This document shows positions 52,355 to 58,182 of a stretch of 64,000 nucleotides of DNA, piece by piece. The position numbers and the translations under genes are program-made. The notes below the pieces were generated by a model. It did no database searches and was not told where the DNA came from. It was given only the letters and a program-made list of their open reading frames with translations. Each line of letters opens with the position of its first letter. Position 1 is the first letter of the stretch. Source of the stretch: Escherichia coli (lineage in GTDB: Bacteria > Pseudomonadota > Gammaproteobacteria > Enterobacterales > Enterobacteriaceae); NCBI RefSeq assembly GCF_003334305.1, contig NZ_QOWS01000022.1. One strand, given 5' to 3'.

Positions 52355-53245
52355 ATGGCAATGGTCCAACCGAAATCGCAAAAAGCACGTTTGTTTATTA
52401 CTCACCTGCTACTGCTACTTTTTATCGCGGCGATTATGTTCCCGCTGCTGATGGTCGTCGCCATCTCACTGCGCCAGGGGAACTTTGCGACCGGTAGCCT
52501 GATCCCGGAGCAAATCTCCTGGGATCACTGGAAACTGGCATTAGGTTTTAGCGTGGAACAGGCTGATGGTCGCATTACGCCACCGCCATTCCCGGTACTG
52601 CTGTGGCTGTGGAACTCGGTAAAGGTCGCCGGGATTTCCGCGATTGGCATTGTGGCGCTCTCCACCACCTGCGCCTACGCTTTCGCCCGTATGCGCTTTC
52701 CAGGCAAAGCGACGCTGCTGAAAGGAATGCTGATTTTCCAGATGTTCCCGGCAGTACTTTCACTGGTCGCGTTGTATGCGTTGTTTGATCGTCTGGGTGA
52801 GTACATTCCATTCATTGGCCTGAATACTCACGGCGGCGTAATTTTCGCGTATCTGGGTGGGATTGCGCTGCACGTCTGGACCATCAAAGGCTATTTCGAA
52901 ACCATCGACAGTTCGCTGGAAGAAGCGGCGGCGCTGGATGGTGCGACACCGTGGCAGGCCTTCCGCCTTGTCCTGTTGCCGCTGTCAGTACCGATTCTGG
53001 CGGTGGTGTTCATCCTGTCGTTTATCGCTGCCATTACTGAAGTTCCGGTCGCGTCGCTGTTACTGCGTGACGTAAACAGCTACACCCTGGCCGTGGGGAT
53101 GCAGCAATACCTCAACCCGCAAAACTACCTGTGGGGTGACTTTGCCGCCGCTGCCGTGATGTCTGCATTACCGATCACCATCGTCTTCTTGCTGGCTCAA
53201 CGCTGGCTGGTCAACGGCCTGACGGCAGGTGGTGTGAAAGGTTAA
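52355..53245 (+). CDS. malG: Maltose ABC transporter permease MalG
   Basis: 296-aa polytopic ORF recognised as MalG. Confidence 0.96.
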
Positions 53246-53315
53246 AGATGTTGTTCTGCCAATGTTATGCCGCTGCACCCTCAACTTACGTTATCCCAAC
53301 TTGTGACTGTTATTC

Positions 53316-53342
53316 GGCGCTCCACGGAGCGCCTTTTTTTCT
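53316..53342 (+). terminator. Intrinsic terminator after malG
   Basis: Hairpin ggcgctcc-acg-ggagcgcc followed by tttttttc. Confidence 0.85.
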
Positions 53343-53616
53343 TTCGTCTGCAATCTGAATCGTTCGCCGGTTAATATTTCCATCATAGAACTTATTATTT
53401 TTACGTTATTTGTTTTCCCACTTACGATAATTCTCTTTCGTGCTCTGAGTCACGGCAATAGTATTGTTTTCATCAATTTTTGATAATTATCACAATTAAG
53501 ATCACAGAAAAGACATTACGTAAACGCATTGTAAAAAATGATAATTGCCTTAACTGCCTGACAATTCCAACATCAATGCACTGATAAAAGATCAGAATGG
53601 TCTAAGGCAGGTCTGA

Positions 53617-55092
53617 ATGAATACCCAGTATAATTCCAGTTATATATTTTCGATTACCTTAGTCGCTACATTAGGTGGTTTATTATTTGGCTACGACACC
53701 GCCGTTATTTCCGGTACTGTTGAGTCACTCAATACCGTCTTTGTTGCTCCACAAAACTTAAGTGAATCCGCTGCCAACTCCCTGTTAGGGTTTTGCGTGG
53801 CCAGCGCTCTGATTGGTTGCATCATCGGCGGTGCCCTCGGTGGTTATTGCAGTAGCCGCTTCGGTCGTCGTGATTCACTTAAGATTGCTGCTGTCCTGTT
53901 TTTTATTTCTGGTGTAGGTTCTGCCTGGCCAGAACTTGGTTTTACCTCTATAAACCCGGACAACACAGTGCCTGTTTATCTGGCAGGTTATGTCCCGGAA
54001 TTTGTTATTTATCGCATTATTGGCGGTATTGGCGTTGGTTTAGCCTCAATGCTTTCACCAATGTATATTGCGGAACTTGCTCCTGCTCATATTCGCGGGA
54101 AACTGGTCTCTTTTAACCAGTTTGCGATTATTTTCGGGCAGCTTTTAGTTTACTGCGTAAACTATTTTATTGCCCGTTCCGGCGACGCCAGCTGGCTGAA
54201 TACTGACGGCTGGCGTTATATGTTTGCCTCGGAATGTATCCCTGCACTGCTGTTCTTAATGCTGCTGTATACCGTGCCAGAAAGTCCTCGCTGGCTGATG
54301 TCACGCGGCAAGCAAGAACAGGCGGAAGGTATCCTGCGCAAAATTATGGGCAACACCCTTGCAACTCAGGCAGTACAGGAAATTAAACACTCTCTGGATC
54401 ATGGCCGCAAAACCGGTGGTCGTCTGCTGATGTTTGGCGTAGGCGTGATTGTCATCGGCGTTATGCTCTCCATCCTCCAGCAATTTGTCGGCATCAATGT
54501 GGTGCTGTACTACGCGCCGGAAGTGTTCAAAACGCTGGGGGCCAGCACGGATATCGCGCTGTTGCAGACCATTATTGTCGGAGTTATCAACCTCACCTTC
54601 ACCGTTCTGGCAATTATGACGGTGGATAAATTTGGTCGTAAGCCACTGCAAATTATCGGCGCACTCGGAATGGCAATCGGTATGTTTAGCCTCGGTACCG
54701 CGTTTTACACTCAGGCACCGGGTATTGTGGCGCTTCTGTCGATGCTGTTCTATGTTGCCGCCTTTGCCATGTCCTGGGGTCCGGTATGCTGGGTACTGCT
54801 GTCGGAAATCTTCCCGAATGCTATTCGTGGTAAAGCGCTGGCAATCGCGGTGGCGGCCCAGTGGCTGGCGAACTACTTCGTCTCCTGGACCTTCCCGATG
54901 ATGGACAAAAACTCCTGGCTGGTGGCCCATTTCCACAACGGTTTCTCCTACTGGATTTACGGGTGTATGGGCGTTCTGGCAGCACTATTTATGTGGAAAT
55001 TTGTCCCGGAAACCAAAGGTAAAACCCTTGAGGAGCTGGAAGCCCTCTGGGAACCGGAAACGAAGAAAACACAACAAACTGCTACGCTGTAA
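53617..55092 (+). CDS. xylE: D-xylose:proton symporter (MFS sugar porter)
   Basis: 491-aa 12-TM ORF recognised as XylE, with sugar-porter motifs (GRR, PESPRWL). Confidence 0.96.
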   Translation: MNTQYNSSYIFSITLVATLGGLLFGYDTAVISGTVESLNTVFVAPQNLSESAANSLLGFCVASALIGCIIGGALGGYCSSRFGRRDSLKIAAVLFFISGVGSAWPELGFTSINPDNTVPVYLAGYVPEFVIYRIIGGIGVGLASMLSPMYIAELAPAHIRGKLVSFNQFAIIFGQLLVYCVNYFIARSGDASWLNTDGWRYMFASECIPALLFLMLLYTVPESPRWLMSRGKQEQAEGILRKIMGNTLATQAVQEIKHSLDHGRKTGGRLLMFGVGVIVIGVMLSILQQFVGINVVLYYAPEVFKTLGASTDIALLQTIIVGVINLTFTVLAIMTVDKFGRKPLQIIGALGMAIGMFSLGTAFYTQAPGIVALLSMLFYVAAFAMSWGPVCWVLLSEIFPNAIRGKALAIAVAAQWLANYFVSWTFPMMDKNSWLVAHFHNGFSYWIYGCMGVLAALFMWKFVPETKGKTLEELEALWEPETKKTQQTATL

Positions 55093-55102
55093 TCTTCCTG
55101 TC

Positions 55103-55138
55103 CAGCACGCCGCGCCAGTTCGGCGTGCTGTCTTTTTA
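55103..55138 (+). terminator. Intrinsic terminator after xylE, overlapping the psiE stop
   Basis: Stem cagcacgccg / cggcgtgctg followed by tcttttta; the psiE stop codon (55136-55138) falls inside the T-tract. Confidence 0.8.
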
Positions 55139-55546
55139 CTCCCGCTTCAGCCGTTTCGAATTACACAGCCACAGGGTGATCACCAGTAACAGGATCGCAG
55201 CCGAGTAGATCAACACATCCAGTGGCGATTTATGATCGACGATGATCAAGCGCACAATGGCGGTGATCCCAATATAGACAAAGTAACGTAGCGGGAAGTG
55301 AAAACCGGACTGAAAGTACTTCACAATCAGCGCGATAAATTCGAAATAGAGAAAGTAAACCACCAGTCCTTCTACCAGCTCATATTTGCTGGTTTGTTCT
55401 GGCGCGAATAGCACATCAGCCAGATGCACCGTTTCTTTGCCGAGGAAGACAACCAAAATCAGGCCGAGGCACAACAGGCCAAGATTGAGTACGGTCTGCA
55501 AAATGGTGGAGATAAACTCCACGCGCGGACGAGAGAGTGACGTCAT
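55136..55546 (-). CDS. psiE: Phosphate-starvation-inducible protein PsiE
   Basis: 136 aa from [11 protein letters not shown] (cat at 55544-55546), membrane protein; ORF track extends upstream. Confidence 0.93.
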
Positions 55547-55760
55547 AGCAGTACCTCCTTCACAGTGGCGAGCTTCCTGTATAACGCAAAAATGTGACGG
55601 AGATCTATATTTTTTGTGTATGTTTTGTTCAGCTTGATTAAGTGGGCATCTCCCATCAACGTCGCATCTGGCAAAACACACAGCCCCAAAAAATCACCCA
55701 TTCAGGTGATTCCCAGCCACCAGCAATGCGCGAAAAATCGACAATGTTCCTCTGGAACAA

Positions 55761-56039
55761 ATGAAACGTAACCTGATAAAGGTGGTAAAAATGAAGCCTT
55801 ATTTTGCTGCTTTGATGTTATCAGTCTCTGTTCTTCCTGCTTATGCTGGTCCGCTCGGTACTGCTGATAAAGCCGACCTACCGCAAAGCAATGTCTCCAG
55901 CCCAATGATGGCCCAGTCGCTCAGGCAACCAGACCTGCAACCGATATCGACGGACAGGAAGACAGAATGTTTTCGCCTTTACACACCAGATCGTAAACCG
56001 GGGGTGAACTGCGTTCCTGATGGCTCAACAGGTCATTAA
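55761..56039 (+). CDS. Small secreted hypothetical protein (possibly yjbT)
   Basis: 92-aa ORF; an internal ATG at 55791 with RBS aggtgg gives an 82-aa protein with a signal peptide (MKPYFAALMLSVSVLPAYA). Confidence 0.5.
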   Translation: MKRNLIKVVKMKPYFAALMLSVSVLPAYAGPLGTADKADLPQSNVSSPMMAQSLRQPDLQPISTDRKTECFRLYTPDRKPGVNCVPDGSTGH

Positions 56040-56085
56040 GAATGAGGGTGCCAGTGAGTGCGAAAACTGGCACCTTTCCCATGAC

Positions 56086-58182
56086 TTAGCGGAAATTTAC
56101 GCTACGGTCGCTGGTCATATCATACAACTGGAACTTACGCCCAAGTTGCTGACCACCGTCACGCGTCAGCGGCGTCCAGCCAATCGCCGCACGGCTGCGT
56201 GTCGGGCCAGACGAGAAGAGATCCAACGGTACCGAGACATACACGCCTTTGGTGAAGTCCCCTTCGCCGTACTCCTCTTTCGAAACGTTGGTGATCGTGG
56301 CATAGCCGCCAACCACCACGCCGCTATCAAAGCGTTTGGCGATCTCCAGCGTGCCGCCTTTATCCCCTGCCAGATACTGCCCGACGCTGGCTTTCACCAA
56401 CACGTCCTGGGCGAAAGATGGCGTCCAGTAGGCGGTCAGATGTCCGGTTTTCACGCTGTAGTCGGTGAATTTCATCATATCTTTTGCACTACGCCAGTCG
56501 CGCTGTTTAACGTAGTTGGCATCCAGACCAAACGCCCAGTTACTGTCCAGCGGACGATACAACACTTCGGCCCCCGCACCGCCAAACATGGTTTCGAGAT
56601 AACCTCCATAGACCTGACCGTAGAAGCCGTTGCCCAGATGCTGGAAGTAGTTGGCTTGCAGGTTATTCACATAGACATCGTTCTGCACATACTCGCGCAC
56701 ATGGGTACGAACGCGCGGTAAGTGCGAGTCCTGCGGCGGATTGGTGTAGTTAAACTTGTCGTAGTTGTTGGCAAGATTTGCAAACAGGCTGCCGGTGGTC
56801 AGCAGATGGTCCGTCAGCCACAAATCTGCCGTTCCCATCACGCCCAGCTGATACATGTAAAAGTTTTCCGGGCCACCGACCGACTGGTTCAGCACCGGAT
56901 CGATGTGGAAATCAAAGCGTGATTTGTCGATATACCAGCCCTGCTCGGTGGACTGCGGAACCACTGGCTCGACGCGTTTTTGCGCCAGCTTCGTTTCGTG
57001 GCCCAACGGCTCTCCGGCGAGATGATTTTTCAGGCTGGCGACATCGGTTTCCGTCGTCACCTGCGGCATGTTAAGACGATTTTCCGTAATGCGGATCGTT
57101 TTGATCCCATCCGGCAGATCGTTCATCACGATCCGATTAGCACGGATGATCCCTTCGCGCGAATCACGATATTTCACCTGCTCGCCGGTGACATACAGCG
57201 TATCGCCTTTCGCCTGGATCTGCGGATCGGCAAGTCCGGCATTGTATTTCAACAGCGTTAACTGATTCGCCACCACCGAATGCTGCAAAATGGCATCCTG
57301 CGGCTGCGGTTGATATTGCGGGCGGGCGTTATCGTTGTAAGACGGGCGCAGATCGTTAAAGTTGGTGCGCAGCGTGACGCCAAACATAAAGGTGTTGCCA
57401 CGTTCATAGCTAAGGTTAACGTCGGCCCAATCGGTAACGCGATAAATCGCACCGACGTTAAACTTACTTTTTTGCTCCAGCTTCCCGGCAAAATCCTGCT
57501 GATAATTATTGCCTTCATACTCCAGTTTCAGGCGCAGCGGTTGCCAGGGCGTCTGGTATTCCACGCCGCCAAACAGTGAGGCAGGACCGTGGAACATCTG
57601 GCTACCGTCGATAGATCCCGCCTGTTTGTAGCTGTTATCGCGATAGCAATATTTATCACTGGCTGAACAGAGCGGATTTTTTACATTACCGCTGGTGCCC
57701 AGATATCCCCAGCCCAGGCCGAGCGTAAAATCGAACGGCCCCCAGGCTTTGCTGGCAACAAGATATTCCGCATCAAACAGCCCCGTACCGCCGATATCCC
57801 GCGCACCAACCGCCACTTGCGGCAGCCAGTAACTCTCTTCCCACAAACGCAGTTTGAGATCGAAGGCTTTATCTTTATACGTTTGATCGCCAGAGAACGC
57901 TTCGACGCTGCTGTACTGCCGGGTGCGCACGTCGGTGTAGCGCAGCGTTGTTTCCAGCCACGGGAAGAGTTGCACTGAAGCTGAGTAATAACGGTACTGA
58001 TCGTTATCGCGATAGTTCAGACTCAACTCCCCTTCCCGTGCCATACGCGCGGTGGGAGTTTGTAATAATCCTACGCCACCGAAATCCGACTGCGACGGAC
58101 CAATGGGCGCAGGATATGTTTCGCCGTAGCAAGCTGTGCTAATGCCCAGCGCCAGTAAGCTAAGCAGATGTCTTTTTTTCAT
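56086..58182 (-). CDS. yjbH: YjbH, GfcD-like outer-membrane protein of the yjbEFGH exopolysaccharide locus
   Basis: 698-aa ORF with signal peptide ending in a lipobox-like LGISTAC; start overlaps the yjbG stop. Confidence 0.92.

Follow-up and report, generated by a model that had tools for sequence, protein, structure and literature searches.

The 43-bp gap between the convergent genes xylE and psiE of Escherichia coli would hold a single, unidirectional Rho-independent terminator, that of xylE itself. In what we regard as the best explanation overall, and a probable one though well short of certain, psiE transcripts would read through this site, be stopped by Rho and be trimmed back to the hairpin, and the overlap of the psiE stop codon with the xylE T-run would be a passive result of genome compaction. 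The arrangement is old, common and unremarkable, and nothing in it departs from known biology; the main new information is the population and comparative context of the junction. The phenomenon is common, and is met here in the best-annotated bacterial genome. It offers a textbook case of tightly packed convergent genes with one 3' hairpin, which acts as intrinsic terminator of one gene and probably gives its partner no more than a protective stem-loop.

The DNA analysed is a stretch of 64,000 nucleotides of the E. coli chromosome (the window), in which the locus order is malEFG-xylE-psiE-yjbT-yjbH. A 501-bp query spanning the site found a match in 5424 of 5426 complete E. coli genomes, and RefSeq makes the same calls for xylE (D-xylose transporter) and psiE in an E. 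coli stretch of 100% identity. The features of the junction are:

53617–55092, + strand: xylE coding sequence (D-xylose:H+ symporter, 491 aa), from the ORF list and RefSeq annotation of the identical stretch
55090–55092, + strand: xylE stop codon TAA, from the ORF list
55103–55130, + strand: hairpin with a perfect 10-bp stem (8 G-C pairs) and an 8-nt loop, the sole hairpin in the gap
55131–55137, + strand: U-tract-coding tail of the xylE terminator, TCTTTTT (ACTTTTT in K-12-type strains)
55136–55546, − strand: psiE coding sequence (phosphate-starvation-inducible inner-membrane protein, 136 aa), from the ORF list and RefSeq
55136–55138, − strand: psiE stop codon TAA, which reads TTA on the + strand

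The intergenic gap runs from 55093 to 55135. The original prediction had the two genes ending within 44 bp of each other, which is right as to their close convergence and one base too long for the gap. The hairpin (first arm, loop and second arm: CAGCACGCCG / CGCCAGTT / CGGCGTGCTG) starts 10 nt past the xylE TAA and is followed on the + strand by TCTTTTTAC (55131–55139). Within this tail, a T5 run at 55133–55137 holds two of the three bases of the psiE stop codon (55136–55137), and the A at 55138 closes the run; put differently, the last two T of the tail are bases 2–3 of the complement of the stop codon. The overlap is therefore real, and to say that the T-tract contains the psiE stop codon, as had been done, is a slight overstatement. 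The run is short and offset (TC or AC, then T5) because the psiE stop and last codon begin at 55136–55141.

The hairpin is stable in the RNA of either strand, with folding energies of −18.4 kcal/mol (+ strand) and −19.2 kcal/mol (− strand). Its z-score against dinucleotide shuffles is about −4 (−4.07 in the xylE direction), with 0–1 of 200 shuffles folding equally well. When the whole window was scanned for the terminator pattern, this site ranked top of the seven reported, a total that is weak overall when set against the 3.9 ± 2.0 sites found in shuffles. The stem is identical in four aligned E. coli variants, which differ only in the loop and in the first base of the tail. Beyond E. coli, the Citrobacter freundii complex and K. 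oxytoca also have xylE between malG and psiE; there, a homologous hairpin (CA[A/G]CACGCCGC...) is present and the T-run again ends in the psiE TTA. In an alignment of 12 sequences from three genera, 93% of cells are paired in the hairpin register, compared to 18–59% in slid registers; six of 11 pairs are invariant and one shows a compensatory change (G-C to A-U). One might suppose that the hairpin is a chance palindrome or repeat fragment and no terminator, since the scan as a whole was not significantly enriched and the classical terminator score of the site (below) is marginal. The z-score, the single copy in the window, the position 10 nt after the xylE stop, the unchanging stem in E. coli and the paired homologues elsewhere, with their compensatory change, all argue against such an origin, which we hold to be extremely improbable.

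An origin of the hairpin from REP or other repeats was tried and rejected, as the 64-kb window has one match to it when up to 3 mismatches are allowed. An Rfam scan of 53000–57000 matched no family, its sole result being a chance match to a miRNA model (E = 0.11). REP elements have been described between convergent genes as a terminator or stabiliser (bioRxiv 10.64898/2026.03.23.713779), and the xylE/psiE hairpin is like them in being an intergenic palindrome able to serve the 3' ends of both neighbours; it is unlike them in being unique in the window, with no repeated family.

In the xylE direction we would place the site in the class of intrinsic (Rho-independent) terminators, with a marginal U-tract. 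It resembles the canonical E. coli intrinsic terminator in its GC-rich 10-bp stem-loop shortly past the xylE stop, followed by a T-run, and the structure is kept in orthologous loci; it differs in that the T-run is short and offset, the score marginal, and the stem not preceded by an A-tract in the xylE sense. T accounts for six of the first eight nucleotides after the stem in the window (TCTTTTTA) and for five of eight in K-12-type strains (ACTTTTTA). The U-tract passed the consensus scan and was marginal by the classical index of d'Aubenton-Carafa. Values of this d-index, which are approximate, having been computed with modern energies, are about +1 in the xylE direction with the window tail (TCTTTTT) and about −28 with the K-12 tail (ACTTTTT), compared to −50 in the psiE direction and +54 for the malG terminator. 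These scores suggest that the site is a moderate-to-weak terminator for xylE and is not an intrinsic terminator for psiE. xylE transcripts would thus end in the T-run, perhaps leakily.

The K-12-type variant (L004) differs from the window by a G-to-T change in the loop at 55119 and a T-to-A change in the first tail base at 55131. More generally, 1835 of the 3630 E. coli genomes with the xylE-psiE junction are 95–99% (not ≥99%) identical to the window over an 81-bp junction. By our calculation the K-12-type changes lower the classical terminator score markedly. With a score that is marginal, above all in the K-12 variant, xylE transcription may also read through into antisense psiE, and the extent of such read-through may vary by lineage.

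The psiE direction looks quite different. The psiE stop lies 5 nt before the hairpin on its own strand, so that each complete psiE transcript enters the hairpin, in agreement with the original prediction that psiE transcripts must cross it. The same prediction placed a U-tract on the + strand only, and this too is borne out by a psiE-sense flank without U: the psiE strand reads UAAAAAGA before the hairpin and GACAGGAAGAUUACAGCG after it, with zero U in the first 9 nt, and the psiE-sense tail of the hairpin, GACAGGAAG, likewise contains none. The consensus scan reports the hairpin site on the + strand only. A U-tract on both strands, as in a bidirectional intrinsic terminator, is thus not found here, and with an A-run, a hairpin and no U-tract in the psiE direction, E. 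coli RNA polymerase would not be expected to be released.

Bidirectional terminators reportedly occur between convergent genes, as put forward by Ju et al. 2019 and, with the collision model, by Wang et al. 2023. The xylE/psiE site shares with them one hairpin common to the pair in a very short gap, but its U-tract is one-sided and the two genes respond to different inducers, xylE to xylose and psiE to phosphate starvation. A ribosome at a stop codon covers nearby downstream RNA; as the stem begins 5 nt past the psiE stop, a ribosome at that stop would sit over part of the 5' arm, further disfavouring hairpin-driven release in that direction. We have nevertheless weighed whether the hairpin might be bidirectional in vivo, pausing the psiE-side polymerase, which would then be released through head-on and trailing collisions. 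The hairpin is equally stable in psiE-sense RNA (−19.2 kcal/mol), and a published mechanism covers such sites, in that convergent-gene terminators that are unlike intrinsic ones and Rho-independent can work by hairpin pausing and collisions (bioRxiv 10.1101/2022.10.23.513370). However, this would require simultaneous and fairly dense transcription of xylE and psiE, which is not a general condition; in addition, the pair was not found in the data sets searched, and during coupled translation the ribosome at the psiE stop would oppose formation of the hairpin. We therefore think this mechanism unlikely.

Past the psiE stop, the consensus scan found no minus-strand terminator from 55135 down to 51301 (about 3.8 kb), and a permissive scan in the psiE sense added two weak hairpins (−7 kcal/mol, four U each), 91 and 591 nt past the stop. 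With no separate psiE terminator, we therefore infer, as the original prediction had suggested, that psiE transcription probably ends inside xylE or by Rho; this is the natural reading, and it would fit the architecture of Rho-dependent 3' ends (PMC6061677). Mapped ends of this kind in E. coli have a stable stem-loop without U, located upstream of the rut site, and are trimmed by PNPase and RNase II; stable stem-loops stop 3' exonucleases (PMC6061677). In the psiE direction there is likewise, at the end of the unit, a stable stem-loop of intrinsic-type energy with no U-rich tail (−19.2 kcal/mol), and the RNA past the stop is untranslated. The minus strand between psiE and malK is without an annotated gene throughout the region antisense to xylE, malG, malF and malE, and psiE-sense RNA from downstream of psiE would therefore be an untranslated, generic Rho substrate. 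In these respects the psiE direction resembles the protective stem-loops of Rho-dependent transcripts. It is unlike them in that the psiE hairpin is preceded by an A-tract, whereas the Rho-dependent ends of Dar and Sorek are mostly without an upstream A-tract (PMC6061677), and in that the downstream excess of C over G is at background level. This excess concerns one region:

54958–55058, − strand: region of psiE-sense RNA with more C than G (C/G 1.2–1.6), 80–180 nt past the stop; a possible but undistinctive Rho loading zone

As a ratio of 1.6 is also reached by 45% of 300-nt stretches drawn at random from the window, the enrichment is no stronger than background, and C/G composition was dropped as support for a rut site.

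The course of events that we favour for psiE is then as follows. The psiE-side polymerase would continue into untranslated antisense-xylE RNA, where Rho most likely terminates transcription at scattered sites, and the 3'–5' exonucleases PNPase and RNase II would trim the psiE RNA to the hairpin, which would form the protective 3' end of the mRNA. It is thus likely that the mature psiE 3' end lies at the hairpin, after trimming, and not inside xylE, a point that the original prediction had missed.

Alternatively, psiE might have no dedicated end, its transcripts running far into antisense RNA (of xylE, or of MalH/malG in strains without xylE) until they either halt at weak hairpin-U sites or are degraded with no defined 3' end shielded by the hairpin. 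The roughly 3.8 kb without a strong minus-strand terminator, the weak candidates 91 and 591 nt past the stop and the undistinctive C/G profile are all compatible with this. However, antisense transcription that is not translated is as a rule kept down by Rho in E. coli. The blocking of 3' exonucleases by stable stem-loops (PMC6061677) also speaks against unprotected decay. With a strong hairpin lying within 12 nt of the psiE stop in most species surveyed (66 of 80, below), we consider the absence of a dedicated end quite unlikely, and return to Rho termination followed by trimming as the preferred account.

In MG1655 the site lies at what we take to be coordinates 4,240,6xx–4,240,8xx. Adams et al. 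2021 (PMC7815308) give no rows at these coordinates in their Term-seq and Rho tables, and none for psiE, xylE, malG or yjbT. The SMRT-Cappable-seq tables likewise lack such rows, and a full-text literature search gave nothing relevant on psiE together with xylE, a terminator or Rho.

Of 5426 complete E. coli genomes, 3630 have the xylE-psiE junction. A further 1787 are without xylE; malG and psiE are convergent in these, and the junction reads GGCGCTCCACGGAGCGCC-TTTTTTT-AC-TCCCGC, the malG (MalH) terminator having the psiE TAA in its T-run. Alignment of the junctions with and without xylE delimits two features of the window:

53316–53340, + strand: malG/MalH terminator (GGCGCTCC, a loop tentatively read as ACGG, GGAGCGCC, then T7), from the scan and the junction alignment
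53341–55137: xylE presence/absence cassette, comprising the promoter region, gene, hairpin and T-run, from the alignment of junctions with and without xylE

The cassette is flanked by T7 at 53334–53340 and T5 at 55133–55137, and because T-runs bound both sides the position of its edges is uncertain to within about 5 nt. Edges of this kind would fit either a deletion via microhomology between the T-runs or an insertion into a T-run. The DNA identity of xylE between E. coli and Citrobacter is 82–84%, matching that of malG (81–84%), which would fit an old presence of xylE followed by recurrent loss; the other Escherichia species sampled, however, are without xylE. Judged from these alignments, the layout is not specific to xylE, a point that had previously been missed: the xylE cassette appears to reproduce an ancestral malG-psiE layout.

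The malG/MalH-psiE junction, which is that of most Enterobacteriaceae as well as of E. coli without xylE, has the same partner and geometry as the xylE-psiE junction, with the psiE TAA in a convergent T-run and no psiE-sense U-tract, but its hairpin is different and shorter (GGCGCTCC/GGAGCGCC) and its run is better (T7–8). Unlike the xylE terminator, that of malG/MalH also forms the 3' end of MalH, a characterised sRNA of 104 nt that depends on Hfq (PMC8081044). The malG 3' end plus terminator (about 53237–53340) corresponds to this sRNA (PMC8081044); the part of MalH that precedes the hairpin (AACTTGTGACTGTT) shows conservation across genera, and no Rfam model matched here. In genomes without xylE, psiE read-through would be antisense to MalH. 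The malG/MalH and xylE terminators, which stand in the same position against the psiE stop in different strains, make a natural comparison, and one that could serve the study of one-sided terminators and of Rho back-up at convergent genes.

Two further loci show other forms of the junction. In Citrobacter braakii (L025, 3403–3800) the xylE terminator hairpin and a short remnant of the xylE 3' end adjoin psiE, with malG 389 bp away; the remainder of xylE is missing, apparently through a separate deletion whose end points differ. In a second locus (L002, NZ_OZ501612.1, 3140–4025) xylE is slightly truncated and followed by an IS1A element, and the genes from psiE to yjbF are gone, which we read as an IS-associated deletion that removed the whole junction in that isolate.

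To set the junction in a wider context we surveyed 80 Enterobacteriaceae psiE loci, one genome per species. The psiE stop lies in an A-run of at least 5 (on the psiE strand) in 58 of the 80 species, and all 58 use TAA; among the 22 with the stop outside such a run, 10 use TAG or TGA. Stop-codon choice in psiE thus tracks the overlap, TAG and TGA being frequent where an insert parts the stop from the run (L008–L087). A GC-rich hairpin starts within 12 nt of the psiE stop in 66 species, and in 65 of these the longest U-run in the 12 nt after the hairpin is at most 2; the sole exception (L045) has lost the malG/xylE neighbour and has its own hairpin and T7. Several genera have spacers or REP-like inserts between the psiE stop and the T-run, often with TAG stops, and the overlap is therefore dispensable.

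Nine convergent pairs were examined in the 64-kb stretch, of which five have a gap of at most 46 bp. Two of these unrelated pairs, uvrA(+)/yjbR(−) with a 34-bp gap (window 24891–24930) and yjbT(+)/yjbH(−) with a 46-bp gap (window 56037–56088), resemble xylE/psiE in that a one-sided hairpin stands next to the stop codon of the partner gene:

24899–24921: uvrA/yjbR hairpin AAGGCCGC...GCGGCCTT, then TTCCTT, then TCA, the yjbR stop codon (24928–24930)
Within 56037–56088: yjbT/yjbH hairpin GGGTGCCAGT...ACTGGCACC, then TTTCCCATGAC, then TTA, the yjbH stop codon; the tail is weak and one-sided

Since the same layout occurs at other pairs, which the original prediction had also missed, the xylE/psiE arrangement can be seen as a normal result of compaction. 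For annotation pipelines the case shows again that a gene without a hairpin-plus-U terminator of its own is normal.

The same comparisons bear on whether the overlap could be a selected regulatory device, in which psiE read-through RNA from phosphate-starved cells acts as antisense to xylE mRNA or, in lineages without xylE, to the MalH sRNA and the malG 3' end, or xylE termination disturbs the termination of psiE translation. The stop-in-T-run layout is found in 58 of the 80 species and recurs with the xylE cassette, and in strains without xylE the read-through RNA would be fully complementary to the 104-nt MalH sRNA. However, spacers, REP-like inserts and other neighbours separate the stop from the T-run in several genera, and the unrelated nearby pairs have the layout that compaction alone predicts, so that we regard a device of this kind as very improbable. 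The more specific proposal, that selection has kept the stop in the T-run for the reason that obligatory psiE read-through during phosphate starvation lowers MalH/malG or xylE and so couples phosphate to sugar uptake, seems to us just as doubtful. We therefore prefer to view the overlap as passive genome compaction rather than a device, the xylE cassette having reproduced the ancestral malG-psiE layout.

Some minor observations were made in the course of the comparison. The psiE-yjbT spacer differs by a 55-bp indel between a reference strain and the window. In the same spacer, some 126 bp before the psiE start, the RefSeq annotation has a hypothetical protein of 42 aa encoded on the minus strand (L089, 5672–5800, equivalent to about 55672–55800 of the window before the indel). 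Finally, a record labelled Chryseobacterium sp. 18061 (L048, CACSKA010000007.1) contains enterobacterial malG (93%) and psiE (97%) with a typical junction, and is probably mislabelled or contaminated.
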